Sequence record: SRR16203515_1898
DNA length: 32,258 bases
Reading direction: 5' to 3' (one strand)
The notes below the pieces were generated by a model. It did not search any database. It was not told where the DNA came from and saw only the letters and a program-made list of their open reading frames with translations. Position numbers and translations under genes: made by a program. Positions 4,460 to 22,660 of the stretch are shown here, one piece after another (position 1 is the stretch's first letter; every line of letters begins with the position of its first letter).

Positions 4460-5764
4460 CTATTTAGTCCACGGCAATAAGCTCATCATCTTTTCAGCAA
4501 TATCGGTATTGTCTTGATTGCCTTTGAAAAGATCGGCTGCAGGGCCGGCTGCAAATACCTGCACATCGCCACCAGTGTGACCTGTTGTGGTCCAGCCGGT
4601 AAAGCTGCGGGTATCAATCAGCTGTTTTAAGCTAGTTTCCAATGCTTGTTTGCCTTGCATACGCGCATTGCTTAGTCGTTGTAATTCAGTGTCAGTGACT
4701 TCAAAACCAAGCTTGTCGTTAATGAGAGTTTGCCAGCTATCAATAGCAATGGCTTGCTCTGCAATACTTGCTGGGCTGGCTTTAATGCCCTGCAGTAGTT
4801 GGGTATCCCAAGCATACTCTCCGTTAGCACCAATAGATAAACCGCCAGTATTATGGTCGGCGGTTACCACCATTAAGGTGTCTGGATTGGCACGAACAAA
4901 TTGCTCTACCACTTCAATAGCGTTGGCAAAACCATGCATTTCACCCATTGCCGTGGCGATATCATTATTGTGGCCAGCCCAGTCAATTAGGCTACCTTCA
5001 ACTAACAACACAAAGCCTTTGTCATTTTGTGACAATAAATCAAGCGCTTTTTGAGTGAGGAGGCTGAGCTGAGTTGAGTCTTGCGTGTCGATAACCCAAG
5101 GCAGTTGCACCTCGGCAAACAGTCCAAGCGCTTTGCCTTGGGTGATACTATTTAGCTGTGAAAAGTCATCAATGTGTTGATAACCTTTCGCTTTAAACTG
5201 TTCAAGCAGAGCCTCTGAAAAGTACTTTTGTCCACCGCCTAGAATCACGTCAGCGTCAGCGTCTAAGTAACTTTTAGCTATTTCATCGTAATTGCGGCGG
5301 CTTTCATTATGCGCTAAATAGGCCGCCGGCGTAGCATGGTTAACTTGCGAGGTAACAGCAACACCCGTTGCCATACCGCGCTCTTTAGCCATTTGCATTA
5401 TGGTGGTTAACGGACGCTTGTTAATATCAACCGATATCGCGCCGTTATAACTTTTGACGCCTGTAGCTAATGCTGTTGCTGAGGCGGCTGAGTCGGTGAC
5501 AAAGCCACTTTGTCTTGCCGGGTAGGTTGAAGCCATACCGACAAGTAACCTATCAAAAACTGTTTGCTCTATCTCTTCAGTGTCAGGGTTATTTTGGTAA
5601 TAACGATATGCACTGGTATAGGCAGGCCCCATACCGTCACCCACCATGATAATCATGTTTTTAGGGCGCGACGGCGCATCATGAATATCGAGATTTGCCG
5701 CAGCAAATAGAGGTAACATAACTAGGGCGCTAATGGCCCAAGTTAATGTTTTTGTTAAGTTCAT
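4460..5764 (-). CDS. phoA: Alkaline phosphatase (PhoA family), exported
   Basis: Signal peptide; GDGMG, TDSAAS (catalytic Ser), HATPA, VEGSLIDWAGH, TADH and HTG metal-ligand motifs. Confidence 0.92.
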   Translation of the reverse strand: MNLTKTLTWAISALVMLPLFAAANLDIHDAPSRPKNMIIMVGDGMGPAYTSAYRYYQNNPDTEEIEQTVFDRLLVGMASTYPARQSGFVTDSAASATALATGVKSYNGAISVDINKRPLTTIMQMAKERGMATGVAVTSQVNHATPAAYLAHNESRRNYDEIAKSYLDADADVILGGGQKYFSEALLEQFKAKGYQHIDDFSQLNSITQGKALGLFAEVQLPWVIDTQDSTQLSLLTQKALDLLSQNDKGFVLLVEGSLIDWAGHNNDIATAMGEMHGFANAIEVVEQFVRANPDTLMVVTADHNTGGLSIGANGEYAWDTQLLQGIKASPASIAEQAIAIDSWQTLINDKLGFEVTDTELQRLSNARMQGKQALETSLKQLIDTRSFTGWTTTGHTGGDVQVFAAGPAADLFKGNQDNTDIAEKMMSLLPWTK

Positions 5765-5778
5765 GCCGATTCCTTTGG

Positions 5779-6732
5779 CTAAGCTGTTTTATTTATACGG
5801 GCTTCAATAGCATCCATTAGCATGCCGGTGATATCTACATCGAATGCTGCTTGAATTTCCTTAATGCAAGTTGGGCTGGTAACGTTAATTTCAGTTAGTT
5901 TGTCACCAATAACATCAAGACCTACAAAAATCAGGCCGCGCTTTTTCAGTTCTGGGCCAATAGTGCGAGCGATATGCCAGTCAGACTCCGAAAGTGGTTG
6001 TGCTACTCCGCGACCACCTGCTGCTAAGTTACCGCGGGTTTCACCTTTTTGTGGAATACGCGCAAGCGAGTAAGGCACTGGTTCGCCATCTACCACTAAA
6101 ATCCGCTTATCACCTGCTGTGATATCTGGGATAAAGGCTTGTGCCATCGCGTATTGGGTCCCTTCTGCAGTAAGGGTTTCGATGATAACACCTAGGTTAG
6201 GGTCATCTTTTTTCACTCTAAAGATTGAGCTACCGCCCATGCCATCTAATGGCTTAAGGATGATGTCACCTTTAGCTTGATGGAAAGCGCGAATTCGCTG
6301 CTCATCGCGGGTAACGATAGTTTCTGGGGTGAACTCAGAAAACCAAGCTGTAAAAAGTTTTTCGTTAGCATCACGCAGGCTTTGCGGCTTGTTTACAATC
6401 AAAACACCTTGTTCTTCTGCACGCTCTAGCATGTAAGTGGAGTAAACAAATTCGGTATCAAATGGTGGGTCTTTACGCATTAAAATAACGTCTAGATCGG
6501 CAAGCGGCGTGTCGATAGCGTCTTCTAGCTGGTACCAATTTTTTGGGTCGTCTTGAACCGTTAACGCGCTCATGGTCGCCATTGCCTGGCCGTTAACCAT
6601 GGCGAGGTCTTTCATCTCCATGTAGAAAAGCTGATAACCACGGGCCTGCGCGGCCATTAACATTGCAAAGCTAGAATCTTTCTTGATGTTTATGTCGCTG
6701 ATGGGATCCATCACGATGCCGAGTTTAATCAT
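5779..6732 (-). CDS. gshB: Glutathione synthetase
   Basis: IVMDPI...KDSS, MRKDPPFD, KPLDGMGG, RGNLAAGG, TEINVTSPT; lies downstream of rsmE. Confidence 0.97.
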   Translation of the reverse strand: MIKLGIVMDPISDINIKKDSSFAMLMAAQARGYQLFYMEMKDLAMVNGQAMATMSALTVQDDPKNWYQLEDAIDTPLADLDVILMRKDPPFDTEFVYSTYMLERAEEQGVLIVNKPQSLRDANEKLFTAWFSEFTPETIVTRDEQRIRAFHQAKGDIILKPLDGMGGSSIFRVKKDDPNLGVIIETLTAEGTQYAMAQAFIPDITAGDKRILVVDGEPVPYSLARIPQKGETRGNLAAGGRGVAQPLSESDWHIARTIGPELKKRGLIFVGLDVIGDKLTEINVTSPTCIKEIQAAFDVDITGMLMDAIEARINKTA

Positions 6733-9293: not shown

Positions 9294-10454
9294 TTAAAGG
9301 GTTGCGGCCGCAGCCTTAACCATGTCTCTGACCTGATTGACTATATCGGTTTCAATTTTTGCATCGTAAGCTGCAATTCGTGGAGTATGGATATGGCCCA
9401 CTGGAATGCTGCTATTAAATTGGTTTTTCAGCAATATAGCTCGGTATGAGATCTCATTAGATAAGTATCCGCCGCCAGAGCCTTCAACGGAAGTGGCGTT
9501 GGTTAGTTGCGCTAATGATTTGGCTTTAAATTCGCCTTGCTCCAAGGTTGATACAGTGTGGTTATCGATAACTTTCCATGGCCCTTGAACACTTTGCATA
9601 GCGTTAATTGGCAAAGAGAACTCGACAAATTCAGGCCCAGTTAACTTACTGCCGTTAAAAGGCGGGGCGATAGGGGCTTGTTTGTTTGCGCCTGTAAGCA
9701 CATTGAGGTTGTCTGGGGCCGCAGCACTGCGATTTAAGCCTGGAAAGCGTTCAATATCAAAATCTTCACGCCCCATACTCACAGTAAAAATCATATCCAC
9801 ACTGTTATCGCGATAAATGGGGGTGAGTAACGACTCAATCATGCCCTCATCGAAATCGGCAAAGCGAACAGGGATCATTACGGTTTCAATTTGCACTTGT
9901 TTGCCATTAACCTTAAAGCGATAACCATCAAGCGCTAAAGCGGTTAACCCAGAGGGGTTGCTTTGGTCGATATTTTTATCAAGAAAGAAAGGATCAAAGC
10001 CCGTTAGTAGGATTTTGATATCGTTATCAGTTTTAAAATCAATATCACTAAATCCACGAGATGACTTCTCTACGGCATCAACTAAAATATCACGCTGCCA
10101 AGCGGCTAATGCAAAGTTAGGCTGTTGAGTTTTAAGTTTTTCACGGATGGCTAAGCGGCTCCAATATAAAGAGCGGTCATCTTGATGGCCTGATTGCACA
10201 TCACGCACGGCTTGTTGCCATAATCTTAAGCCTTGGTTGGCAACCATTTGGGTTATTTTAAGCTCATCAGAGTGACGGCTGTACTTGTCACTAAGCTGAC
10301 TAACAAAAACTTGATAACGGTCAACGACTTCAGGTATGGCTTGTTTTGCTGTAGGTAGACGTGACTCTTCAACATCTAATTTTGCCCAAGCTGGTTGACA
10401 TATTGCTGCCATGGCGAGAGTTGCGCTAAATAAAGCCGTATTAAAAACAGTCAT
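9294..10454 (-). CDS. Exported pyroglutamyl-peptidase I (C15)-like protein with Ser in place of the catalytic Cys
   Basis: Signal peptide; ILLTGFDPF, SNPSG, DIERF, GGGYLSNEI, GHIHTP. Confidence 0.8.
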   Translation of the reverse strand: MTVFNTALFSATLAMAAICQPAWAKLDVEESRLPTAKQAIPEVVDRYQVFVSQLSDKYSRHSDELKITQMVANQGLRLWQQAVRDVQSGHQDDRSLYWSRLAIREKLKTQQPNFALAAWQRDILVDAVEKSSRGFSDIDFKTDNDIKILLTGFDPFFLDKNIDQSNPSGLTALALDGYRFKVNGKQVQIETVMIPVRFADFDEGMIESLLTPIYRDNSVDMIFTVSMGREDFDIERFPGLNRSAAAPDNLNVLTGANKQAPIAPPFNGSKLTGPEFVEFSLPINAMQSVQGPWKVIDNHTVSTLEQGEFKAKSLAQLTNATSVEGSGGGYLSNEISYRAILLKNQFNSSIPVGHIHTPRIAAYDAKIETDIVNQVRDMVKAAAATL

Positions 10455-10828: not shown

Positions 10829-12175
10829 ATGATGAAACGTGTCAGTATTATTGGCCAAAGTTATGACGACTTCTTATGTGAACAGTTAAAGCGTAGAGAA
10901 ATATTTGCTGAATACTGTGCAGTTGATGAGCTAGAGCGCTTTAATTTTAGTTGTCATCTATTGTTACTCGATCTTCGATGCTTTGAACAAATCGTTTGGG
11001 CTGAATCAGTGATCCGCAAGTTACATAAGCATACCTTGGTATTAGTGTTGATTGACCGGCAGCAGCTAAAGTGCGATTCAGTGCAGCAACTTATCGGTCA
11101 GCACGCGTGGGATTATCATACCGCCCCTTTTGAAATAGACAGACTTGCACGCTTAATGGGCCATGCAATTGGTGTAATTCAGATTCGCCAACAATGCATG
11201 AAAGAAGGCGGAAGTAATACTAATCATTCTGGCCCTGTAAACCCTGTAAACCCTGTAATGCGCTCTGCAGCCATGCAAATGCTAGCAAAAAATATCAATC
11301 GAGCAGCCCCTACCGATATTCCTATTTTAGTTCGTGGTGAAAGTGGCACAGGTAAAGAGCTCATTGCCCGAAAAATTCATACCCAATCCTCTCGGGCTGA
11401 CGGTCCATTTGTGGCTGTTAATTGTGGTTCGCTAATTTCAGGGGTTGTGCAATCAGAACTGTTTGGCCATGAAAAGGGGGCATTTACCGGGGCGGTAGGT
11501 AGTCATAAAGGTAAAATATCACAAGCCGATGGTGGGACACTTTTTTTAGATGAAATTGGTGATCTACCGTTGGAGCAGCAAGTGAATTTACTGCGTTTTT
11601 TACAAGAAGGAACATTTGATACGGTTGGTGGTACGTGTGCGCAGTCATCGGATGTGCGCGTGGTTGCTGCTACCCATATTGATTTGGAGTTGGCGATTGA
11701 AAGAGGTGAATTTCGTTTAGATCTTTTTTACCGTCTTAACGGTATTACAATCGAATTACCTCCATTGAGAGAGCGACAAGAAGACATCATTCCGTTGGCG
11801 AGTTATTTTTGTGAAAAGTATGCTCACGAATACAATGTAGGCAAATGTCAGTTAAGTAAAGATGCTTGCTATGCCCTGTTAAAGCATGAATGGGTAGGTA
11901 ATGTGAGGGAACTTATCAATCGCATTAGAAGAGCGGTATTGTTATGCGAAAATGGATTAATTAAAACTCAAGATCTCGAGCTTAAAGAAGTCATAGTGCA
12001 GCCTTGTTTTGCCCAAGGCCTTAAAACGATAAAAGATGAAGTGGAAAAAAATGCTTTAGTTACCGCAATTCAAAAACATAACGGAAAAATGGACATTGTT
12101 GCTAGTGACTTACAGATCTCCCGTGCCACCTTGTATCGACTTATCGATAAGCATGAGATTTGTGCGGCTGAATAA
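10829..12175 (+). CDS. Sigma54-dependent enhancer-binding protein with VpsR-type N-terminal domain and Fis-type HTH
   Basis: GESGTGKE Walker A, ELFGHEKGAFTGA, LFLDEIG Walker B, FRLDLFYRL, WVGNVREL, ISRATLYRL; N-terminus QL..DSVQQLI....DYHTAP....L...GHAIG resembles the Vibrio VpsR atypical receiver domain; AGGGAG RBS. Confidence 0.9.
   Translation: MMKRVSIIGQSYDDFLCEQLKRREIFAEYCAVDELERFNFSCHLLLLDLRCFEQIVWAESVIRKLHKHTLVLVLIDRQQLKCDSVQQLIGQHAWDYHTAPFEIDRLARLMGHAIGVIQIRQQCMKEGGSNTNHSGPVNPVNPVMRSAAMQMLAKNINRAAPTDIPILVRGESGTGKELIARKIHTQSSRADGPFVAVNCGSLISGVVQSELFGHEKGAFTGAVGSHKGKISQADGGTLFLDEIGDLPLEQQVNLLRFLQEGTFDTVGGTCAQSSDVRVVAATHIDLELAIERGEFRLDLFYRLNGITIELPPLRERQEDIIPLASYFCEKYAHEYNVGKCQLSKDACYALLKHEWVGNVRELINRIRRAVLLCENGLIKTQDLELKEVIVQPCFAQGLKTIKDEVEKNALVTAIQKHNGKMDIVASDLQISRATLYRLIDKHEICAAE
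11233..11259 (+). repeat. In-frame 9-bp tandem repeat, about 3 copies (CCCTGTAAA), encoding PVN-PVN-PVM
   Basis: ccctgtaaa ccctgtaaa ccctgtaat, in the linker before the AAA+ domain. Confidence 0.85.
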
Positions 12176-12180
12176 ATAAT

Positions 12181-12196
12181 TTCTCAGTTTTGAGAA
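12181..12196. promoter_or_regulatory. Palindromic enhancer site 1 (VpsR-type box TCTCA-N4-TGAGA)
   Basis: TTCTCA-GTTT-TGAGAA, about 120 bp upstream of the sigma54 -24 element. Confidence 0.7.
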
Positions 12197-12240
12197 TGCA
12201 GTAATTAATTATGAGTCTAATTAATTCAATGGGTTAACTT

Positions 12241-12273
12241 AAGACAGTCTCAGAAATGAGATTGTCTTTTTTT
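12241..12273. promoter_or_regulatory. Palindromic enhancer site 2 (TCTCA-GAAA-TGAGA), which also forms a terminator-like hairpin
   Basis: AAGACAGTCTCA-GAAA-TGAGATTGTCTT followed by a T run. Confidence 0.7.
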
Positions 12274-12313
12274 ATGTAAAAATTAAGTCCATGAATTACT
12301 TTGTTTTTATTGT

Positions 12314-12331
12314 TTGGCGTGCTGTTTGCTA
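12314..12331 (+). promoter_or_regulatory. Sigma54 (-24/-12) promoter of the fap operon
   Basis: TTGGCGT-GCTGT-TTGCTA: GG(12316-17)-N10-GC(12328-29), about 40 bp before the fapB ATG and directly downstream of a sigma54 activator gene. Confidence 0.8.
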
Positions 12332-12369
12332 CTTGTTTGACACGGTTTTGATGATAGTTAGAGTGTTGA

Positions 12370-12975
12370 ATGAAGTTAAGCAATGTTCCAATGTACTTAT
12401 GCCTATCCCTAGTAGGTTTTTCATCTGCTGTTTGGTCGGACAGTGATGCAAGTACGCTTACTCAACACATTGATAATCGCTCTACCGTAGGTACGAAGTC
12501 TTTTAGCAACAACACTGGACGTATCGCAATCAATCAGGCAGCTGGTGATAGCAACCTGCAATCAAATAGCCATGCTATTGCTGATCAAGTCATTATCTTA
12601 TCGGATCAACAAAATCCTTACCTAAAACTGTTAGATGAACATACGGCATATAACCTTACTCATATTGAAGAACTTGCATTTGAAAATGCACAAGGGCTTG
12701 TCAGTATTAATCAGGTTAGTGGTCAAGGAAATATTCAAGCCAATCTTGGAGCTATCGCTCTGCAGTCTGTGATTGGTTTAGGTCTTGATGATAACGCACT
12801 TGATAATATTGTAAGCCCTACCACCTTACCTCTCGAACGTAACGATACAAACCATGCAGTTATTGCTCCGGACAGTTTTGAAAATGCCCAAGGCATAGTT
12901 CAAATCAATCAAGTTTCTGGCGATGGTAACAGCGCCATAAATCAGTTCTCGCTGCAGTTACCTAGTGGGAATTAA
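12370..12975 (+). CDS. fapB: Fap amyloid minor subunit/nucleator (FapB-like)
   Basis: Signal peptide; three Fap repeats (SFSNNTGRIAINQAAGDSNLQSN; AFENAQGLVSINQVSGQGNIQAN; SFENAQGIVQINQVSGDGNSAIN); position in the operon. Confidence 0.85.
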   Translation: MKLSNVPMYLCLSLVGFSSAVWSDSDASTLTQHIDNRSTVGTKSFSNNTGRIAINQAAGDSNLQSNSHAIADQVIILSDQQNPYLKLLDEHTAYNLTHIEELAFENAQGLVSINQVSGQGNIQANLGAIALQSVIGLGLDDNALDNIVSPTTLPLERNDTNHAVIAPDSFENAQGIVQINQVSGDGNSAINQFSLQLPSGN

Positions 12976-12992
12976 ATTGCTCAAATGGAGAT

Positions 12993-14093
12993 ATGAAAAT
13001 GGAAATGAAAAAATTAACCCTAGTCATGTGTATCGGTGCGGCGGTTAGTGCGCCAGCATTTGCTAACGGAAATGACTCTTCTGAGTCTAGTTCTGAGTCG
13101 AACAGCTCTGTTGAATTGAAGAAAGAAGTAACCGTTAAAAAAGATGTGGAATTTTCAGGTAAAGTCAAAATAGACGGTGATATTCGAGTCAATGGATTAG
13201 GTATGGCAGTTGTCGATAATGTGCAGACTACTGGAGCCAATGGTGTTGGCAATTCATACGTAGAAAACTCAGCAAGCATCTCAGGCTCAGCATTTAATAA
13301 TGCCAGCGGTAACATTGGCGTTAACCAAGCTGCTGGTGACTATAATGTGCAAGGTAATTCTGCTGCATTAGCGTCAATAGACCAAAGTTTTGCTTTTGGT
13401 TCTGGTGATGCCGAGATCTTCAGTACTCAACGTGGTTCATTTAATTTAACCAATAACTATGCAACAACCAATGATGCCAGCATTAAAGGTGATGCCTTTA
13501 AAGGTGCCTCAGGTAACATTGGGGTAAACATTGCTGCTGGTGGCAATAATATTCAAGCTAATAACATGGCTGCATCTGCACACAATGGTAGTTTAGGTGA
13601 AGCTAGTGTATCTAACTCGCAAGTCTCGGCCCATAACGGGATTAATAACGAAAGTGTTGTTCAAAACTCAGCAGAATCAGTAGAAGTTACTTTAGGTTTT
13701 GGTGCCATAGGCGGTTATAGCGGTACGTCTGAACAGACTGGTAGTTACTACCCTGAGATTTGGAAAGATGACGGTTCCCACGCTAATGGCGATGATGCTG
13801 AACTTTGGGGACATCTAGATATGGACGCTAATAATCCAACCGGAGATTCAGGTTTAACTTTTGAAGAGGAAGGTGTTATCGGTTTACTTGGTGTTGTGAG
13901 TGGTGAGCTACCTTTCTATATTGAGACAGTAACTCAAAAAACCACCAATACAGCATCTCTGAGCGGAAATGCTTTCCAAAATGCCTCAGGTAACATTGGC
14001 GTTAATATGGCGTCTGGTAATGGTAATTTACAGTCAAATAACCTATCACTTACTAGTATGACCGGAGGAGCCATTGTTTCAGAAGCTCCTTAA
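12993..14093 (+). CDS. fapC: Fap amyloid major subunit (FapC-like)
   Basis: Signal peptide; three repeats NxAS(I/L)xGxAFxxASGNIGVNxAxGxxNxQxN starting at 13266, 13470 and 13947; N/G/S/A-rich; GGAG RBS. Confidence 0.88.
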   Translation: MKMEMKKLTLVMCIGAAVSAPAFANGNDSSESSSESNSSVELKKEVTVKKDVEFSGKVKIDGDIRVNGLGMAVVDNVQTTGANGVGNSYVENSASISGSAFNNASGNIGVNQAAGDYNVQGNSAALASIDQSFAFGSGDAEIFSTQRGSFNLTNNYATTNDASIKGDAFKGASGNIGVNIAAGGNNIQANNMAASAHNGSLGEASVSNSQVSAHNGINNESVVQNSAESVEVTLGFGAIGGYSGTSEQTGSYYPEIWKDDGSHANGDDAELWGHLDMDANNPTGDSGLTFEEEGVIGLLGVVSGELPFYIETVTQKTTNTASLSGNAFQNASGNIGVNMASGNGNLQSNNLSLTSMTGGAIVSEAP

Positions 14094-14117
14094 TCAACAC
14101 TAACCATTAGTGTGATA

Positions 14118-14144
14118 ATCGGCCTGGGCATTGCTCAGGCCGAT
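14118..14144 (+). other. Intergenic stem-loop after fapC (putative mRNA stabiliser or partial attenuator)
   Basis: ATCGGCCTGGGC-att-GCTCAGGCCGAT, 12-bp stem with one G-U pair, no U tract. Confidence 0.65.
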
Positions 14145-14163
14145 ACATACAAGGAAGTCATCT

Positions 14164-14847
14164 ATGAAACGCTCGTTTGTTATCTTAATTACCTTTTTAT
14201 CTTTTAATGCGTTTGCTGCAGACATCATCTTGACAGGCATGATCCCTGGAATGGGTAACTACAGCAAAAATATTCAAAGTATCAGAGAGCAAAAGTTTGA
14301 ATATGTTGTGCAGCAAAGAACAGACTTTTCCTGTGGTGCAGCTAGTTTGGCAAGCATTCTTAAATATGGCTACGGCAACCAAACAATAACCGAACAAGAA
14401 GTGTTATTGGGAATGCTAAAAGTATCTGACATTGAACTTGTTCAACAGCAAGGCTTCTCCTTATTAGATATGAAGCGATATTTAAACTCACAGAATATGC
14501 GTGGGCGCGGCTACCGTGTAGGTATTGCAGAGCTCCAGCAGTTAAAAATTCCTGCGATAGTGCTATTAAATGATGGTGGTTATAGCCACTTTGTCGTGAT
14601 GAGAAGGTTCACCGGGAATCAAGTTTATTTAGGCGATCCCGCGTTAGGGAATCGTATCTTAACTTTTGACGAGTTTACCGATAAATGGAATGGCATCGTA
14701 TTTGTGGTGATAGGTAATCAATACATTAAAGATAACCCTCTATTACACCCTCGGCCGCAGTTGACTTACAAGATATTGGATCCCTTGCAGCCATTATCCG
14801 ATGCTGAATTATTAGAGTTTGGTTTCGAGTATGCAGACATGCTCTAG
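14164..14847 (+). CDS. fapD: C39 family cysteine peptidase (FapD-like)
   Basis: QRTDFSCGAA (catalytic Cys), YSHFVV (His), GDPALGN (Asp). ATG 14164 chosen over TTG 14131 because it has an AAGGAAG RBS and yields a clean signal peptide. Confidence 0.9.
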   Translation: MKRSFVILITFLSFNAFAADIILTGMIPGMGNYSKNIQSIREQKFEYVVQQRTDFSCGAASLASILKYGYGNQTITEQEVLLGMLKVSDIELVQQQGFSLLDMKRYLNSQNMRGRGYRVGIAELQQLKIPAIVLLNDGGYSHFVVMRRFTGNQVYLGDPALGNRILTFDEFTDKWNGIVFVVIGNQYIKDNPLLHPRPQLTYKILDPLQPLSDAELLEFGFEYADML

Positions 14848-14855
14848 GAGGCAAA

Positions 14856-15584
14856 ATGAAATTTTGCTTTATGACAGGATTAGTTACAGGTGCAGGGATA
14901 TTACTGGCTAACACAGTATTTGCATCTGAAGTTCCGTTAGAGGCTTTTGCTGGAAAGTCGCCTTTACTGGATCAAGAGCTCGCTGAAATGCGTGGTAAAT
15001 ACACCGAGAATGGCCAAGATTTTTATTTTGGTCTTCACATGCAAACCCACTATATCAATGAGCAGGGGCTGTCGCAGCAAGTTCATATGCAAGTGGAGCT
15101 TGCGAATGCGGAAAGTGGCCCAGCTATGCGCATTACCATTGCCGATAATGTATTAAATGCTAACGATAGCGTTAACTTATCTGCTAACGGTCAGCAGCGG
15201 GGACTGCAACAATCGATTCAAATCGCGGGGGATTTTAATCAAGTAAATAATCAGTTTGATTTAGAGCAAGGTCACTTAGCGCCATTAAATAATGGAGTTG
15301 AAATCGTTATCGGTCAGACTTTAGTTAACAGTCGCGGTGACGTGGTTTATTCAACCGCCAGTGGTCAGCTTGGCTATGAGGTTGGTATGTCTTCAGCTTC
15401 TTTTGCGCAAGGGGTTGCATCACAAGGTGGTAATGGTCAATTGGTGCAATCGATTAAAATTGATGGTGCATTTCATCAAGTCTCGAATCACTCTTTGATC
15501 CGTTATAACGGTATTAGTTTAGGTGTAAAACAGCGTCAATTATTAGGGATGCAGGTACGCGATATTATAGGTATTGGACTATAG
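14856..15584 (+). CDS. fapE: Fap minor subunit (FapE-like)
   Basis: AGGAGG RBS, signal peptide, ELAEMRGKY, GLQQSIQIAGDFNQVNN and QLVQSIKIDGAFHQVSN repeats; lies between fapD and fapF. Confidence 0.78.
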   Translation: MKFCFMTGLVTGAGILLANTVFASEVPLEAFAGKSPLLDQELAEMRGKYTENGQDFYFGLHMQTHYINEQGLSQQVHMQVELANAESGPAMRITIADNVLNANDSVNLSANGQQRGLQQSIQIAGDFNQVNNQFDLEQGHLAPLNNGVEIVIGQTLVNSRGDVVYSTASGQLGYEVGMSSASFAQGVASQGGNGQLVQSIKIDGAFHQVSNHSLIRYNGISLGVKQRQLLGMQVRDIIGIGL

Positions 15585-15616
15585 TTTTTTTAAAGTATAA
15601 AAATAGGGAACAAGAA

Positions 15617-16984
15617 ATGGATTTTAAATGGACTAAAGTGGCGCTACTGGTATCCATTTCGAGTATGCCAATGATGACTTTTTCTGTTGATGCAAACCAA
15701 GCTCAGATGACTGAAGCCGAAGAGCTACAACTATTAAAAAAACAGCTTATTTTGCTCAACCAGCAATTACAGATGCAGCAAAGAGCCATTAATCAAATGG
15801 CTCAAAAAGTCCTGTCTAAAGAGGCGCAGCTGAAGCAAGCTCAAACAGCTAACACCACTCAAACTAAAGCCGCTCAAGCTCCCCAAGTTACTGCGCAGCA
15901 AGCGCGGGTATCAACATCTTCTCAAGCGCAGCCTCAAAATCAACAGGCGGCAATCGAAAGAGCGCCACAACAACCAACCCAAATTGCTAATTCACAAGCA
16001 CAAAGTCCAACTCAGGCTGCTGTGAAAAAAGAACCTGAACGCTCGCGTAGTACTGAAGATGTGCTGCAAGAAGCGCACAATGTATTTGATCGTAAACTGA
16101 CGATTGAGCCCTCTTTAACCTACAGCTACTACGGGCGAAAGGATTTAGTATTACGTGGTTTTTTAGCCTTGGATGCGATTTTCCTCGGTAACTTAAATTT
16201 GGATCGCATTCGCTCAAATACAGTGCAGCTGGATCTCACTACTCGCTATACGTTAAACGATAGCTGGCAGTTTGAAATGGCGATGCCATTTGTGTACCGC
16301 CTAAACAAGTATGAGTCAGTAGGTGAAGGTAACTCGAGCCAGCTTTATGAATCAGCTGATGTAGAAGGTGCGCAAATTGGTGACATGAGCGTTGCCGCCT
16401 ACTATCGAATAATGACAGAAGGTGATGGGTGGCCAGATTGGGTGTGGAACGTAAGAGTGCGAATGCCAACCGGAGATGATCCATTTGGTATTAACCTTGA
16501 GTCGTCTGAATCCGGTAATTTGACCTATCCCGATCAAATCGCTACAGGTGCCGGTGTGTGGGGCATTTCAACCGGGTTTAGTTTAGCTAAAACCTATGAC
16601 CCCGCCATTGTGTTTTTTAACCTTAATTACGGTACTTTTCTTTCGGAAGAGTATGGTGATTTATCAGGCCTTCCAGGATTATCTCCAGGAGAGATTGATT
16701 TAGGTGACTATATTGATTACAGCTTAGGGTTAGCGTTTGCTGTGTCAGAGCGCATGAGTATAGGGATGAGCTTTAATCAGCGCTTCTTTACTAAAACCCG
16801 CCAAAAGCCCTTGGGTGGTCAGTGGCAAGATATTGCACGTACTGATACCAATACGGCTAATCTAGGTTTAGGTGCCACGCTAGCCTTGACTGAAAACTTT
16901 TCTATGGTCACCAGTATTGGTGCTGGTTTAACGGAAGATTCACCCGACTATCAGATTAGCTTGCGTTTCCCTTACCGTTTTTAA
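15617..16984 (+). CDS. fapF: Outer-membrane amyloid secretion channel (FapF-like)
   Basis: Signal peptide, N-terminal coiled coil, Q/A/P-rich linker, GFLALDAIFLGN, PTGDDPFGI, amphipathic beta strands, C-terminal ...LRFPYRF. Confidence 0.88.
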   Translation: MDFKWTKVALLVSISSMPMMTFSVDANQAQMTEAEELQLLKKQLILLNQQLQMQQRAINQMAQKVLSKEAQLKQAQTANTTQTKAAQAPQVTAQQARVSTSSQAQPQNQQAAIERAPQQPTQIANSQAQSPTQAAVKKEPERSRSTEDVLQEAHNVFDRKLTIEPSLTYSYYGRKDLVLRGFLALDAIFLGNLNLDRIRSNTVQLDLTTRYTLNDSWQFEMAMPFVYRLNKYESVGEGNSSQLYESADVEGAQIGDMSVAAYYRIMTEGDGWPDWVWNVRVRMPTGDDPFGINLESSESGNLTYPDQIATGAGVWGISTGFSLAKTYDPAIVFFNLNYGTFLSEEYGDLSGLPGLSPGEIDLGDYIDYSLGLAFAVSERMSIGMSFNQRFFTKTRQKPLGGQWQDIARTDTNTANLGLGATLALTENFSMVTSIGAGLTEDSPDYQISLRFPYRF

Positions 16985-17019: not shown

Positions 17020-17043
17020 AAGCGCCTTGATAGGCGCTTTTTT
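17020..17043 (+). terminator. Intrinsic terminator of the fap operon, between converging fapF and lysR
   Basis: AAGCGCCT-tgat-AGGCGCTT followed by TTTT. Confidence 0.85.
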
Positions 17044-17069
17044 ATGTCAGCATGTTTACATCTGCTGAT

Positions 17070-17981
17070 TTACATCATTAGTGACTGTAACGACTCTTGG
17101 CTAGTAAAGCGCTTATGAAAGAAGTCTAGAAACACGCTGATGTTAGTCGCTAATTGACGACGGCTAGAGTACACGCCATAAACCTTAAAGGCTTCCATAG
17201 GCCACTCTTGTAAAATAGGCACTAGCGAGCCGCTAGCTAGCTCATTTTTACAAACGGAGTTGGATAGCATGGCAATGCCAAAATCATCCATAACTAATTG
17301 TTTTACCATTACAGCGCTATTGACCCTGACTTTACGCTGAAAATTAACCATGGTTTTTCTAGCGCCTTTACCAAGTGGCCAAATCGGCGCGGAGCGTGAA
17401 GTACCAAGTAAAATACCGCTGTGTTCAGCCAAGTCTTGCGGGGTTGCTGGTGTGCCATGGATTTTTAAATAGCCGGGGCTGGCAACTAAAATAGGTTGGC
17501 GCTCGAACAGTAATCTCGCTACCAAGTCTGATGATTGCAGCGGACCATATTTAATTGCAATATCGTAGCCTTCACCCACTAAGCCAACTTCACTATCGGT
17601 AAACTGCACGTCAAGTTCAACATTGGGGTAGAGGCGTAAGAAACCACTACAGAGAGTCGCGATTAGTTCTTGGCTGAAAGATACTGGAATAGCGATACGC
17701 AGCAAGCCTGAGACATCATTGTGAGTATTTTCAACCGTGGCTTTTGCAGCTTCAATTTCATCGCTTATACTGGAGCAGTGCTGATAAAACAGCGCACCGA
17801 CCTGAGTCAAACTCAAATTGCGCGTATCTCGCTGCAAAAGTCGTACACCTAGCTGCTCTTCAAGCTGGGCAACCTTACGACTAATGGTTGATTTTGGCAT
17901 GCCTATTTCACGGGCAGCTTGAGAGAAACCTTTGGCTCTAACTACCGCCGCAAAGAGCATCATACCGTTTAAATCTGGCAT
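17070..17981 (-). CDS. LysR family transcriptional regulator (CrgA/DmlR-like), divergent from the carboxylase gene
   Basis: HTH GFSQAAREIGMPKSTISRKVAQLEEQLGVRLLQR; GGAG RBS. Confidence 0.92.
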   Translation of the reverse strand: MPDLNGMMLFAAVVRAKGFSQAAREIGMPKSTISRKVAQLEEQLGVRLLQRDTRNLSLTQVGALFYQHCSSISDEIEAAKATVENTHNDVSGLLRIAIPVSFSQELIATLCSGFLRLYPNVELDVQFTDSEVGLVGEGYDIAIKYGPLQSSDLVARLLFERQPILVASPGYLKIHGTPATPQDLAEHSGILLGTSRSAPIWPLGKGARKTMVNFQRKVRVNSAVMVKQLVMDDFGIAMLSNSVCKNELASGSLVPILQEWPMEAFKVYGVYSSRRQLATNISVFLDFFHKRFTSQESLQSLMM

Positions 17982-18103: not shown

Positions 18104-21100
18104 ATGACCAGCCAAAATCAGCCCGCTAACACGACTCAAGTGCAAACTGCCGATCCGCTTTTTCTAAAAGCAGAGCAGCTAGCTAAAGACTTTTCCTTGT
18201 TCCCTGAACACAGTAAGCAGTCGCTTTCTGACGAAGTTAAAGGTCTTTTAGACGACGACGCGATTCAAGCCAACCTTAAAGATTTGGCCCAATTAGACGT
18301 CGATGGTTACGTCACTAAGGTTATTCAACCTACTCAAGATAAAAACCGCCCTGGTGCTAAGCGCATCATTGCGGATCTTAAAGGTAAGCTCATTACCGAA
18401 ACTCATATTGGCCCTTTTTATAGTGCAGAGATCGAACTGAATTTTGGTTCTCGTACTCGCCGTATCGGTTTTGTAGCGCAAGAGCGTACAACTTCAAATG
18501 GCGCTTGGATGCCTGAGCACCATATCGCTTGCTGTAAGGCGATTCGTCATTTTGCTGAATTGTCTATGCCAATTGTTTACCTTATCGACACCCCTGGTGC
18601 TGATGCAGGTGAAGTGGCTAACAGCCAAAACCAAGCACACTCAATTTCTAAAGCGATTGCTGAGAGCGCAAACGTTGACGTACCGACTGTCGGTATCGTT
18701 ATCGGTGCGGGTTACTCTGGCGGTGCGATTCCACTAGCTGCAGCAAACATTTTGCTATCGCTACGTGACGGTATTTTTAACACCATTCAGCCTCAAGGTT
18801 TGCAAAGCATTGCGCGCAAATACAACCTATCTTGGCAAGAATGTGCTAAATCAGTGGGTGTTTCGCCTGAAGAGCTATACACCTCTGGTTGTATTGACGG
18901 TATTGTTGATTTCTCGCCATCAGATAAAGATGAGCGTCAGCACAACCTACGTCGTGCAATCATTAGCAGCATTGAAGCTGTAGAAAAAGCGGCGGTTAAC
19001 TTTGTACGCGAATCAGAAGACTTACGCGAGCATTACGATCGCAGTTTAACGCGTTTCCTTAGCCCATCTAAGAACCTTGAAGCGCTAGAGCTAAATGCAG
19101 AGCTTGCGGTTGCTAACAACCCAACCATGCATTTAAACCTATTTGGTAGCACATACCGTTACCTACGTTACCTAACCCTACGTAGCCGCATCCATTCAAT
19201 CTCGCAAGAGCAGTATGGTCGTCTATCTAAGGTGAGCGTACCAGAAGGTGATTTGCTAGCGCGTATTCAGCAAGAGCAAGATCGCGTATTCCAGTCTTGG
19301 TTATCAAGCCCTGATAAACTGGTTTACGACGAAGAGCTAAACAAGCTTTGGGGTAACTTCATCGCTAAGCGTGATGACGTATCTACTGAGCGTAATATGC
19401 TGACTCGTTTGATTTTGGGTGAACCAAAAGAGAACTACAAAAAAGCTCGTAAGGCGCTTATCTTTAACATCAGCTGGTCTCTATACCACCGCTGGAAAGG
19501 TAACGCAGAAAACAACTTTAAGGGCCTTATCAACTACCTAGAGACGCTTCCATCAGAAGTGACTCAAGCTGATTGGCCTGAGCTAAACAAGCTGACGGTA
19601 CTTGACGTGATCATTCACGACGAGCTACGTGAAGACTTTATTTGGCAGTGTCATAACATTCTTGTATTCAACGCACTTTACGACAACGTAGTAGGCAATT
19701 TAGCATCTATCGCTAAAGAAGCCATGATGTCTAAGAGCTTGTCACGTAACTCAGTTGATAACCTGTTGCATGAGTCGATTGACCGTGCTTTATCAACCCA
19801 AAACGTTGCTAACGACAAGAGCAAGTTCTACAAGTGGCTGAAGTACTTTATGACTCAGTCAAACCGTGCAGAATTATTGACTCGTACAGAGCAGTGGAAG
19901 AGTGTTGGTTTCCCACAGCTGAACGACAGTCTATTCGTTATTCTAACTTACTTCTTCGAACGTCTACTGCCAGAGTATTTCGACAGCGAAGAAGAAAGCA
20001 GTGAATACACGGGTGCAATTAACCCTGTGCGTATCGGTCGTCGTAAAGACTTCTGGAACCGTTTAACTATGGGTTACCAAGATTTGCTAATCCAAAAGGT
20101 TCTGCGCGATGAAAAGCGTGCGGGCAAAATGGGTTGGGATGCAATTGTTGCTAAGTTCTTCACTGAGTTTGAAGAAATCAATGGCGATAAGATCTCTGCT
20201 AACTTGCTTAACTTCCCTGGTTTCCGTCTATCTATTGAAGATGCGCTAGACAAAGGCATTCGCCCATGTGGTTTAATCACAGGTCTTGCTGATTTTGACC
20301 ATAACGGTCAACCAATGCGCGTCGGTGTAGCGGTATCAAACACAGCATTCCAAGCGGGTGCATTTGATATGGCTGCTGCAGAGAAGTTCAGCGCGCTGTT
20401 AATCGAGTGTGCTAAGCGTAAGCTGCCAGTAATTTGTTTCATCAGCTCTGGTGGTATGCAGACTAAAGAAGGTGCAGCAGCACTATTCTCAATGGCTGTT
20501 GTCAATGACCGTATTACTCGTTTTATTCGTGATAACGAGTTGCCAGTATTGATGTTTGGTTATGGTGACTGCACTGGTGGTGCACAGGCGAGTTTTGTGA
20601 CTCACCCATTAGTGCAAACTTACTACCTATCAGGCACAAACATGCCATTTGCTGGCCAAATGGTTGTACCTGCATACCTACCATCAACTTCAACGCTATC
20701 TAACTATTTGTCGAAAGTACCGGGTGCGATGGATGCATTGGTGACTAACCCGTTTAGCGACACAATTGACGCTCAGCTACAAAGCATTGATCCATTAATG
20801 CCTAAGCCAACAGCTAAGATTGTTGATGTGATTAGCAATGCGGTTTCTACTTTAGTGCCAGAAAGACTAGTCGCTGAAGAAGAGATTGTTCAAGACGATC
20901 CACGTCAGCTAATGAAGCCGATTGAAAAAGTATTGGTACACGCTCGTGGTTGTACTGCGGTTAAGCTTATCCGTAAAGCGCACGACAACAACATCAATGT
21001 GGTATTAGTTGCATCAGATCCTGATATGACTTCGGTACCAGCAGACATGCTTAAAGGCGACGATAAGCTAGTTTGTATCGGTGGTAACACTTCTGATGAA

Positions 21101-22660
21101 AGTTACCTAAACGCATACTCAGTACTAAAAGTTGCTGAATATGAAAACGTTGATGCCCTGCACCCTGGTATTGGTTTCTTATCTGAAAGCCCACAGTTTG
21201 CCGCACTTTGTGTAAACAATGGCGTTAACTTTGTTGGCCCAAGCGTGCACAGCATGACAACTATGGGTAACAAGTCGAACGCGATTAAGACTTCTCAAGC
21301 GCAAAATGTACCGGTAGTTCCAGGTAGCCACGGTATCTTGAATAACGCAGAGCAAGCGGTAAACGTTGCGAGCGAAATTGGCTATCCAGTATTGCTTAAA
21401 GCAGTACAAGGTGGTGGCGGTAAAGGTATTCAGGTTGTTGAACGCCCAGGCGACATGATCTCCTTGTTCCAAAAGACGTCTACCGAAGCGGCAGCAGCAT
21501 TTGGTAACGGTGACTTGTACCTAGAGAAGTATGTTACTTCACTACGTCACATCGAAGTTCAGTTGCTGCGTGACCAGTTTGGTAACACCAAAGTACTGGG
21601 TCTACGTGATTGTTCTGTACAGCGTAACAACCAAAAAGTGGTTGAAGAGTCTGGTTCAACTATGTTGCTAGATGAACTTAAGCAACGCGTGATGGAATAC
21701 ACTCGTGCACTAGGTGACGCGACTGACTACATGGGCGCAGGTACGGTTGAATTTATCTACAACTTAGACGCTAACGAAGTCTACTTTATGGAGATGAATA
21801 CTCGTCTACAGGTAGAGCATCCAGTAACTGAGGCTACTTCAGGTATTGATATCGTAAGCGCAGGTTTTGATATTGCAGCTGGTCGCTCGATTGCAGAGCT
21901 TGAGCCGCAAGAAATTGGCTACGCGATGGAAGTACGTGTAACTGCTGAGAAAGCGGCGCTTGATAGCAATGGCGTTCTACAGCTATTACCACACCCAGGT
22001 TTGATTACTGAATACCAAATGCCAGAGCGTGATGACATTGAAATCATCTCTATTGCGGGTGAAGGTAAAGAAGTATCACCATACTACGATAGCTTAATTG
22101 CACAGATCATTTGCCGCGGTGAAAGCCGTGAAGACGTAATCACTAAGCTACATGATTACCTAGCAAATCAAGTTGTGATTAAAGGCATTGCGACTAACAT
22201 TCCATTGTTAACGCGCATTCTTAAAGATGGCACGTTCAACGAAGGTGTTTACGACACTAACTACCTACCGCGCTTTATGGCAGAGCTAGATGTACCAGAG
22301 CTAATTGCTGAAATGGAAGCGGCGGCTGAAACTGTAGGTGTTGACACTGCATCACTGCGCGTTGGTGAAAGTAACGAGCTTAAAGTTATGGCACAGGGTG
22401 CGGGTATCTTCTATACCTCTCCAGCGCCTGGTGAAGCTGACTTCGTTAAAGAAGGTGACATTGTTACTGTAGATCAGACTTTAGCGCTTACAGAAGCGAT
22501 GAAGATGTTCTCGCAAGTAACCCTTGCCGGCTTTAACCGTAAGAATGCGGTACTTTACCCTGAAGATCAGCAGTATCGTATTGAGCGTATTCTTAATAGT
22601 AACGGCCAGCAAGTATCACAAGGTGAACTACTATTTGTAGTATCACCAGTGACTAAGTAA
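18104..22660 (+). CDS. Single-chain biotin-dependent acyl-CoA carboxylase (AccA-like CT, helical insert, AccD-like CT, biotin carboxylase, BCCP); probable acetyl-CoA carboxylase
   Basis: LIDTPGA and GYSGGA (CT alpha); SSGGMQTKEG and CTGGAQAS (CT beta); HPGIGFLSE, GGGGKG, RDCSVQR, EMNTRLQVEH, YYDS (BC); EAMKM biotinylation site; GAGGA RBS. Confidence 0.92.
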   Translation: MTSQNQPANTTQVQTADPLFLKAEQLAKDFSLFPEHSKQSLSDEVKGLLDDDAIQANLKDLAQLDVDGYVTKVIQPTQDKNRPGAKRIIADLKGKLITETHIGPFYSAEIELNFGSRTRRIGFVAQERTTSNGAWMPEHHIACCKAIRHFAELSMPIVYLIDTPGADAGEVANSQNQAHSISKAIAESANVDVPTVGIVIGAGYSGGAIPLAAANILLSLRDGIFNTIQPQGLQSIARKYNLSWQECAKSVGVSPEELYTSGCIDGIVDFSPSDKDERQHNLRRAIISSIEAVEKAAVNFVRESEDLREHYDRSLTRFLSPSKNLEALELNAELAVANNPTMHLNLFGSTYRYLRYLTLRSRIHSISQEQYGRLSKVSVPEGDLLARIQQEQDRVFQSWLSSPDKLVYDEELNKLWGNFIAKRDDVSTERNMLTRLILGEPKENYKKARKALIFNISWSLYHRWKGNAENNFKGLINYLETLPSEVTQADWPELNKLTVLDVIIHDELREDFIWQCHNILVFNALYDNVVGNLASIAKEAMMSKSLSRNSVDNLLHESIDRALSTQNVANDKSKFYKWLKYFMTQSNRAELLTRTEQWKSVGFPQLNDSLFVILTYFFERLLPEYFDSEEESSEYTGAINPVRIGRRKDFWNRLTMGYQDLLIQKVLRDEKRAGKMGWDAIVAKFFTEFEEINGDKISANLLNFPGFRLSIEDALDKGIRPCGLITGLADFDHNGQPMRVGVAVSNTAFQAGAFDMAAAEKFSALLIECAKRKLPVICFISSGGMQTKEGAAALFSMAVVNDRITRFIRDNELPVLMFGYGDCTGGAQASFVTHPLVQTYYLSGTNMPFAGQMVVPAYLPSTSTLSNYLSKVPGAMDALVTNPFSDTIDAQLQSIDPLMPKPTAKIVDVISNAVSTLVPERLVAEEEIVQDDPRQLMKPIEKVLVHARGCTAVKLIRKAHDNNINVVLVASDPDMTSVPADMLKGDDKLVCIGGNTSDESYLNAYSVLKVAEYENVDALHPGIGFLSESPQFAALCVNNGVNFVGPSVHSMTTMGNKSNAIKTSQAQNVPVVPGSHGILNNAEQAVNVASEIGYPVLLKAVQGGGGKGIQVVERPGDMISLFQKTSTEAAAAFGNGDLYLEKYVTSLRHIEVQLLRDQFGNTKVLGLRDCSVQRNNQKVVEESGSTMLLDELKQRVMEYTRALGDATDYMGAGTVEFIYNLDANEVYFMEMNTRLQVEHPVTEATSGIDIVSAGFDIAAGRSIAELEPQEIGYAMEVRVTAEKAALDSNGVLQLLPHPGLITEYQMPERDDIEIISIAGEGKEVSPYYDSLIAQIICRGESREDVITKLHDYLANQVVIKGIATNIPLLTRILKDGTFNEGVYDTNYLPRFMAELDVPELIAEMEAAAETVGVDTASLRVGESNELKVMAQGAGIFYTSPAPGEADFVKEGDIVTVDQTLALTEAMKMFSQVTLAGFNRKNAVLYPEDQQYRIERILNSNGQQVSQGELLFVVSPVTK

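Follow-up and report, generated by a model that had tools for sequence, protein, structure and literature searches.

The window considered here, a 32,258-nucleotide stretch of DNA from sequence record SRR16203515_1898, is Shewanella DNA closest to Shewanella sp. 1CM18E, and it carries a fapBCDEF functional-amyloid operon preceded directly by the gene of a dedicated BrfA-type σ54 activator, a reading to which we assign a probability of roughly 0.8. The genome of Shewanella sp. 1CM18E (4.9 Mb, hereafter G001) served as the closest genome for comparison, the window being 100% identical to it in FapF and 98% in the regulator. At the level of sequence and comparison, the identities of the genes, the intact ATPase and σ54 motifs of the regulator, the conservation of the dyads and promoter between it and fapB together with their constant geometry, its family membership and its homology to the Vibrio regulator VpsR are established. 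The bacterial enhancer-binding protein (bEBP) gene, the two dyads, the -24/-12 promoter and the five fap genes that a first-pass annotation of this DNA had placed between positions 10,829 and 16,984 were all found there by open reading frame (ORF) calls, pattern scans and Pfam/NCBIfam searches. The circuit is not a new wiring: RpoN/BrfA control of fap is already described in the accessible parts of two publications (PMC9207406, PMC13101488). The RpoN/BrfA/fap circuit is therefore a published one for Pseudomonas, of which the window locus is an orthologous member, and the part that is possibly new is the family link between BrfA and VpsR together with their shared operator. The Fap amyloid is a major component of the biofilm matrix, and the locus extends the Pseudomonas BrfA/RpoN model to marine Shewanella.

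The regulator gene (10829..12175, plus strand) consists of a 448-amino-acid ORF whose product belongs to the NtrC-type bEBPs and, within them, to the BrfA-type or VpsR family, as judged from its Pfam matches and from its position in a tree described below. Pfam recognises the σ54 activation domain (Sigma54_activat, PF00158, E = 2.1e-65), AAA_lid_14, HTH_8 (9.6e-06) and the VpsR domain PF20161, the last with 30.4 bits against a cut-off of 23.7 and over residues 65-111 only. The AAA+ σ54 interaction domain (11258..11755, plus strand) has kept all its ATPase motifs, namely Walker A (GESGTGKE), Walker B (LFLDEIG, with its DE pair), the GAFTGA loop (residues 217-222, nucleotides 11477-11494) and the R-finger region VRVVAAT, and is followed by a Fis-type helix-turn-helix (HTH; 12038..12148, plus strand) with the recognition helix SRATLYRLIDKH, as compared with SRATMYRLLNKH in VpsR. 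AAA+ motifs, a Fis-type HTH and a promoter with -24 GG and -12 GC at enhancer distance, the features by which a σ54-dependent bEBP is recognised, are thus all present. The N-terminal domain (residues 5-122; 10841..11194, plus strand) is receiver-like and aligns by hhalign to the N-terminus of Vibrio VpsR, with Asp48 at the phospho-acceptor position and invariant across 12 Shewanella regulator proteins. Pfam Response_reg (PF00072) has no match in the regulator at E<=0.01, and the domain ends in HTAPF, with no lysine before the proline; canonical receiver domains carry Lys-Pro. When compared with FleQ and FlrA, bEBPs that bind cyclic diguanylate (c-di-GMP) and are likewise related to biofilms, the protein resembles them in its ATPase, FleQ being its best PDB match over the AAA+ core (5exx, 5.8e-73), but differs in the N-terminal domain, the PDB match beginning only at residue 145. 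The clade that unites fap-linked regulators and VpsR does not include the flagellar regulators of Shewanella and Vibrio, FlrA being presumably among the outgroup rows.

Between the regulator gene and fapB lie two copies of the dyad TCTCA-N4-TGAGA, neither with a strand of its own: the distal box 1, TCTCAGTTTTGAGA (12182..12195), and the proximal box 2, TCTCAGAAATGAGA (12248..12261), spaced 66 bp apart and centred at about -152 and -86, respectively, from the predicted start site. The candidate σ54 promoter TGGCGTGCTGTTTGCT (TGGC-N7-TTGC; 12315..12330, plus strand) lies 67 bp after box 2, with its GG at 12316-17, its GC at 12328-29 and a start site predicted near 12340-12342; rpoN is present in G001. 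In the whole window the dyad pattern occurs at the two boxes only, against 0.03 expected matches, and none of 100 shuffles reaches two. The 4.9-Mb genome of G001 contains four sites (one for the reversed-pattern control), two of which are the box 1/box 2 pair. The other two sites, one in the intergenic region of isocitrate dehydrogenase and pseudouridine synthase genes and the other inside a DUF1090 gene, were taken as chance occurrences rather than operators, no -24/-12 element being seen in the one stretch inspected. Box 2 is also embedded in a hairpin (12241-12268) with a 12-bp stem, a GAAA loop and a TTTTT tail, which makes the segment 12241..12275 (plus strand) a probable intrinsic terminator of the regulator gene. 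Between the two boxes stands ATTCAATGGGTTA (12224..12236, plus strand), one mismatch away from WATCAANNNNTTR, the consensus of integration host factor (IHF).

The strength of this layout becomes apparent when it is compared across Shewanella. A scan of named genomes by FapF alignment retrieved 13 fap loci, all from Shewanella, and in 12 of these loci the regulator gene immediately precedes fapB, the thirteenth ending at a contig edge. Twelve intergenic regions were compared, that is, the window and 11 other species, leaving out the near-identical copy of 1CM18E, whose boxes equal those of the window. All 12 regions contain two TCTYA-N4-TRAGA dyads, the form in which box 1 is conserved, at distances of 65-67 bp (66 bp in 8 of the 12); 23 of the 24 boxes are perfect and one has a single mismatch, the half-sites being either TCTCA or TCTTA. 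Likewise, TGGC-N7-TTGC[T/A] follows box 2 after 64-68 bp in every region. The flanks have otherwise diverged, as little else reaches an identity of 7/10 in a box-2-anchored comparison of ten representatives (nine Shewanella regions plus L116). In L116, a fap locus from another family of the same order in which the regulator is transcribed divergently, TCTCAAATTTGAGA precedes TGGCACCTCCATTGCT by 68 bp and is itself preceded, at a distance of about 64 bp, by a TCTTA-N3-TGAGA. Together, these alignments give strong comparative support to a putative two-site enhancer with a σ54 promoter, and the claim that regulator, operator, promoter and operon can be read from the sequence as one wiring is borne out by their joint conservation in Shewanella. 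Two conserved dyads 66 bp apart with an IHF-like site between them, followed by a -24/-12 element, make an arrangement that can be tested directly. A σ70-like sequence, TTGACA-16-TAGAGT (12337-12364), lies beyond the -24/-12 element; it overlaps a short ACGGTTT that is conserved 3' of that element in close relatives, and may be a part of the leader rather than a promoter.

The same regions clarify the double nature of box 2. Only in the window, S. pneumatophori and S. marinintestina (L010, L012) does it form a strong hairpin (-13 to -19 kcal/mol) with a T-run, and the stem extensions covary, with ACAG/TTGT in the window (one G-T pair), ACAG/CTGT and TCGG/CCGA. The other nine regions keep the dyad while their box 2 hairpins are weak (0 to -8.3 kcal/mol), mostly without a T-run. 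Because the dyad is found in all 12 regions and the strong hairpin in just three, box 2 is best regarded as an operator that was also recruited as a terminator in the subclade of the window. As for the IHF-like site, 8 of the 12 regions have their best plus-strand match at a start 23-25 bp ahead of box 2; four of these matches are perfect and four, that of the window included, have one mismatch. In three more regions a two-mismatch match occupies the same position. A shuffled segment would contain a perfect match with a probability of 0.0055. The IHF-like site sits between the dyads and not between enhancer and promoter, and 7 of the 12 regions have a second, weaker match some 30 bp ahead of the -24 element.

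Downstream of the promoter, five genes follow on the plus strand with gaps of 8-37 bp: fapB (12370..12975; 201 aa; NCBIfam FapB, E = 1.5e-17), fapC for the major amyloid subunit (12993..14093; 366 aa; FapC, 3.4e-53, with 181.4 bits against a cut-off of 195), fapD for a C39 peptidase (14131..14847; FapD, 1.7e-73; Pfam Peptidase_C39, 2.3e-22), fapE (14856..15584; 242 aa; FapE, 1.7e-15) and fapF for the outer-membrane amyloid transporter (15617..16984; 455 aa; FapF, 1.8e-105). The top NCBIfam match of each ORF is the corresponding Fap model, with all scores under the equivalog cut-offs, which fits the divergence of these proteins from those of Pseudomonas. The start of fapD is more likely the in-frame ATG at 14161 (MKRSFVILITF...) than the listed TTG at 14131. 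An intrinsic terminator with an 8-bp stem, five G-C pairs and a T-run (17020..17045, hairpin 17020-17039, plus strand) closes the operon; its presence had been anticipated, and it lies just past position 16,984, where the module had been said to end. No fapA was found at the head of the operon in the window, where the promoter and the ATG of fapB are only 39 bp apart, leaving no space for a fapA ORF. Shewanella has indeed been named among the genera that depart from the fapABCDEF arrangement, most commonly by loss of fapA, and deletion of fapA leaves Fap-dependent biofilm formation intact (PMC3792158). When the locus is compared with Pseudomonas fapABCDEF (Dueholm et al. 2013, PMC3792158; PMC6173800), the gene order fapB-C-D-E-F, the best-model matches and the organisation as a single operon are shared; in contrast, the window lacks fapA and a regulator adjoins fap, both in the window and in 15 of the 18 loci sampled across the class, whereas, in a view that stood until 2022 and is given in a 2018 review, no regulatory proteins are encoded in the fap operon (PMC6173800).

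The assignment of the regulator to the BrfA type relies on phylogeny. A mixture-model tree was computed for 51 proteins, including 21 of the 29 σ54 activator paralogues of one Shewanella and one Vibrio-like genome and omitting five long-branched ones. It contains a clade of 28, supported by an ultrafast bootstrap (UFBoot) of 100 and an SH-aLRT of 97, that comprises all 21 fap-linked regulators, that of the window included, two VpsR proteins and five other proteins with a VpsR domain; the 23 other bEBPs, 21 of them Shewanella or Vibrio paralogues, are placed outside. The grouping with the fap-linked regulators at 100/97 identifies the window protein as a BrfA-type regulator. In addition, the Pfam VpsR domain scores above its cut-off in 11 of 17 further fap-linked regulators, among them that of locus L052. 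This locus has the sole FapF above the NCBIfam cut-off, and its regulator ORF of 1,326 bp comes after fapF in the opposite orientation, an arrangement published for brfA; L052 is accordingly presumed to be Pseudomonas from its FapF score, and its regulator to be BrfA from ORF length and gene order.

In P. fluorescens PF07, according to the available portion of Guo et al. 2022 (PMC9207406), the -24/-12 promoter of fapA was mapped by rapid amplification of cDNA ends (5'-RACE), rpoN and brfA mutants show lowered fap expression, and brfA, 1,326 bp long, is located downstream of fapF on the opposite strand. The accessible text of PMC13101488 describes BrfA as a c-di-GMP-sensing enhancer-binding protein, and the control of fapA-F by BrfA and RpoN in P. 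fluorescens PF07 / SBW25 (both papers; bioRxiv 10.64898/2026.01.27.702051) is the closest known system. The window shares with this system a Fis-family σ54 activator that adjoins fap and a -24/-12 element preceding the first fap gene. With L052 it further shares the clade, a Pfam VpsR-type N-terminal domain in the regulator and two related dyads before the -24/-12 element, which in L052 are GTCTCACGGTTGATAC (-80 relative to the GG) and GTTACACAACTGATAC (-150), as found with a pattern chosen post hoc. The σ54-like site of L052 is taken to be CGGCACGCCTTCTGCT at 6154, shortly before fapA, a candidate at 5674 having been discarded as it lies inside a coding region. The differences are as follows: the window regulator is upstream and co-directional, whereas BrfA is downstream and opposite; fapA is absent; the half-sites are TCTCA/TCTTA as opposed to mostly T(A/C)TCA...GATAC; the window protein keeps Asp at the phospho-acceptor position, where L052 has Arg; and the proximal dyad of the window doubles as a terminator hairpin.

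Other genera were reached by sampling the class with the NCBIfam FapF model, which matched 32 of 400 genomes; 18 of the best loci, all gammaproteobacterial, were fetched. A bEBP lies inside the fetched stretch in 15 of these 18, the remaining three loci being truncated or partial. The motif scan suggested for the fap operons of other genera gave a divided result, since the strict TCTYA-N4-TRAGA has no match in 10 non-Shewanella fap promoters, while the dyad of L116 stands and the degenerate GTMTCA-N4-TGAKAC yields 13 matches with <=3 mismatches in 9 of the 10 promoters (1.9 in shuffles, 0 of 500 reaching 13). The latter dyads are situated about 80 and 150 bp before the -24 element; as the pattern was chosen after viewing those very sequences, this result is a lead only. 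Elements resembling -24/-12 occur in the fap loci of other families as well. Two fap-linked activators (L064, L065) have GAFTDA in place of GAFTGA, gave no VpsR-domain match and are the earliest to split off within the clade, on a long branch; no match to TGG[CT]-N7-[TC]TGC was found upstream of their fapB. Finally, three GAFTGA-bearing members of the clade from the order Enterobacterales (L115, L117, L118) are located away from fap, divergent from GspA-like genes and next to large M11-peptidase/cadherin-like and SpaA-like surface proteins; in L118 a GspB-like (T2SSB) gene comes next, and the neighbourhood of L115 includes gidA-gidB-parA-parB. The fap/VpsR regulator family may control other surface or secretion loci too.

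When these elements are put together, the following sequence of events can be proposed. Dimers of the activator would bind the two (G)TCTCA-N4-TGAGA(C) dyads, at about -152 and -86, by means of the C-terminal Fis-type HTH, and a bend, probably introduced by IHF at the consensus-like site between them, would bring the dyads together so that the AAA+ domains could assemble into a ring. The GAFTGA loops would contact and remodel the σ54 holoenzyme held at the -24/-12 element (12315-12330), ATP hydrolysis would open the promoter, and the transcript would run from about 12341 through fapB-F to the terminator at 17020. The VpsR-like N-terminal domain is expected to gate the ATPase, with phosphorylation of Asp48 as a possible alternative or additional input, and in the subclade of the window box 2 would at the same time form the stem of the terminator that ends the regulator gene. 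For the window locus, we infer in this manner the binding of the regulator to the dyads, the dependence on RpoN, the role of IHF, the nature of the signal and the amyloid output.

Several points weigh against this reading. The dyads stand 66 bp apart, a wide spacing for bEBP enhancers; the window has 3 matches to the -24/-12 pattern where 1.19 are expected, which by itself lacks significance; the σ70-like sequence at 12337-12364 overlaps the leader; box 2 with its flanks scores as a terminator, a role that could partly account for its conservation in the closest relatives; and the retained Asp48 possibly leaves room for an input by phosphorylation. The alternatives are best considered one by one.

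By homology with BrfA and VpsR, the input to the window regulator is rather c-di-GMP than not, if by a modest step above even odds, and c-di-GMP is the most likely signal because both characterised relatives respond to it (for BrfA, as stated in the accessible text). Instead, the activator might be an orphan response regulator whose Asp48 is phosphorylated by an unlinked kinase, c-di-GMP not being the signal at all. The alignment of Asp48 with D59 of VpsR and its invariance in the 12 Shewanella proteins are compatible with this idea, and since many other family members have lost the residue, such as the Pseudomonas-like L052 with its Arg, its retention may be functional. The lack of a Response_reg match at the threshold given above, the HTAPF ending without a lysine, the absence of a kinase gene adjoining the locus and the c-di-GMP responsiveness of BrfA and VpsR point the other way, and a phosphorylation-dependent orphan is on balance unlikely.

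Alternatively, the palindromes might not be operators: box 2 would then do no more than terminate the regulator gene independently of rho, and box 1 would be a repeat that arose by chance or for structural reasons. The 12-bp stem with its GAAA loop and TTTTT tail, as well as the stable hairpins, T-runs and covarying extensions in the window, S. pneumatophori and S. marinintestina, are what a terminator would show. However, the nine other regions have weak box 2 hairpins, mostly without a T-run, and yet the 5-N4-5 dyad is there in 12 of 12 regions, 64-68 bp from the promoter; box 1 is the same dyad at 65-67 bp from box 2; L116 has the dyad despite a divergent regulator gene, so that no terminator is needed there; and the same dyad stands upstream of vpsR in 3 of 3 Vibrio genomes. 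A terminator without operator function is for these reasons very improbable.

Just as little credit can be given to the proposal that the dyads are bound by another protein, be it a global regulator or the LysR-type regulator encoded at 17070-17981, with the bEBP acting elsewhere. A LysR gene does flank the operon in all four Shewanella loci with listed ORFs, but it is the bEBP gene, not the LysR gene, that the dyad accompanies, the listed ORFs of L116 including no such neighbour; moreover, the bEBP and VpsR have closely matching recognition helices, the dyad pair occurs in G001 at fap only, and -86/-152 before a σ54 promoter is a typical enhancer position. Lastly, transcription of fap mainly from a σ70 promoter or by read-through from the regulator gene, with a fortuitous -24/-12 match, can be given next to no weight, for although the σ70-like TTGACA-16-TAGAGT agrees with the consensus in 10/12 positions and the -24/-12 pattern by itself is not enriched in the window, the latter recurs at a constant distance in L116 and in all 12 Shewanella regions, with similar elements in the fap loci of other families, the σ70-like -10 ends 6 bp before the ATG, σ70-like sites are fewer in the region than in shuffles (12 against a mean of 15.6), and a terminator-like hairpin separates the regulator gene from fapB.

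With a σ54-dependent BrfA-type activator as the preferred reading, its relationship to VpsR can be addressed. The first-pass annotation had taken the regulator for a VpsR relative, and the comparison of N-terminal domains agrees: when a profile built from the 12 Shewanella N-termini was compared with the N-terminus of Vibrio VpsR, hhalign returned a probability of 97.4% with E = 1.5e-11 over 116 columns, aligning window residues 5-122 with VpsR 14-133 and D48 with D59, in keeping with the shared clade at 100/97. The VpsR rows come from Vibrio-like genomes, one of them verified by its match to PDB 7v2b (VpsR) at E = 1.8e-218. In an alignment of 33 clade members, only the three VpsR rows have a deleted GAFTGA loop and ND in Walker B. 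This is consistent with the literature, which describes VpsR as lacking the GAFTGA loop, carrying ND in Walker B, working with σ70 RNA polymerase, binding near -35 at PvpsL and activating polysaccharide genes (PMC6158489), and with the earlier statement that the window regulator has kept what VpsR lost. With GAFTGA and the Walker B DE intact, the window protein is a relative of VpsR and not a functional VpsR.

The recognition helices are nearly identical (SRATLYRL in the window, SRATMYRL in VpsR), and the putative operators share one dyad. The VpsR motif was reportedly defined by Zamorano-Sanchez et al. in 2015. In each of 3 Vibrio genomes, vpsR is preceded at 111-153 bp by a perfect TCTTA-N4-TGAGA, against a background (<=1 mismatch) of 0.1 per kb, and the sequences protected by VpsR begin with TTTCTCA and AGTCTTA (PMC6158489). 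These boxes and quoted footprints, both indirect checks, suggest that TCTCA-N4-TGAGA is a VpsR box and fit the prediction that the two regulators use the same operator; shared clade, N-terminal homology and the helix and dyad matches jointly support one family with one probable operator. VpsR controls biofilm matrix, as the window regulator presumably does, yet the dyads of the window lie at enhancer distance from a -24/-12 element before a single amyloid operon and its protein keeps all σ54 and ATPase motifs, whereas VpsR, without the GAFTGA loop and the Walker B DE, acts near -35 with σ70 at polysaccharide genes. Amyloid regulators and VpsR sharing a clade, a sensor domain and, it seems, an operator provide a concrete route from a σ54 to a σ70 activator, and the Shewanella locus offers a tractable non-pathogenic system to study how the VpsR-type domain reads its signal.

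The direction of that route is more tentative. In the mixture-model tree, VpsR is sister to the Shewanella-type regulators plus L075 (96/89), but an approximately unbiased (AU) test on 38 rows under LG+G4 does not reject a topology with VpsR outside all 26 other clade members (p 0.548), so that its exact position within the clade is not robust. It is conceivable, at somewhat less than even odds, that VpsR is a derived offshoot of the fap-amyloid (BrfA-type) regulator family with the Shewanella-type proteins as its closest σ54-dependent relatives, having kept the sensor domain, the helix and the operator while losing the GAFTGA loop and the ATPase and moving the operator from enhancer distance to the -35 region. 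If so, the Shewanella locus would show in a living organism what preceded VpsR, and the sensing of c-di-GMP through the N-terminal domain would be ancestral to the whole family. The suggestion that the Shewanella circuit represents the ancestral state of the VpsR circuit is in this sense plausible: the placement of VpsR beside the Shewanella-type regulators favours it, and the AU test leaves the competing topology standing. BrfA and VpsR are mentioned together in no paper of the literature searched, in which no paper on fap regulation in Shewanella was found either; Guo et al. 2024, said to be the primary BrfA paper, may already make the link. The Vibrio-like genome that encodes VpsR has a second clade member (L104/L120), long-branched and with GAFTGA intact, about 460 kb from vpsR and next to genes for a DUF1439 protein and a 594-aa protein without a Pfam family.

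As regards its surroundings, the fap island of the window is flanked by a pyroglutamyl-peptidase-like gene (9294-10454) and the LysR gene mentioned above, an arrangement also seen in two of the three other Shewanella loci with listed ORFs (L005-L007). FapF is present in 4 of 37 sampled Shewanella genomes, a patchy distribution that suggests gain or repeated loss at one site. Further downstream, 18104-22660 is a single ORF of 1,518 aa whose translation, inspected by eye, appears to be a fusion of carboxyltransferase-like, biotin-carboxylase-like and biotinyl (EAMKM) parts.

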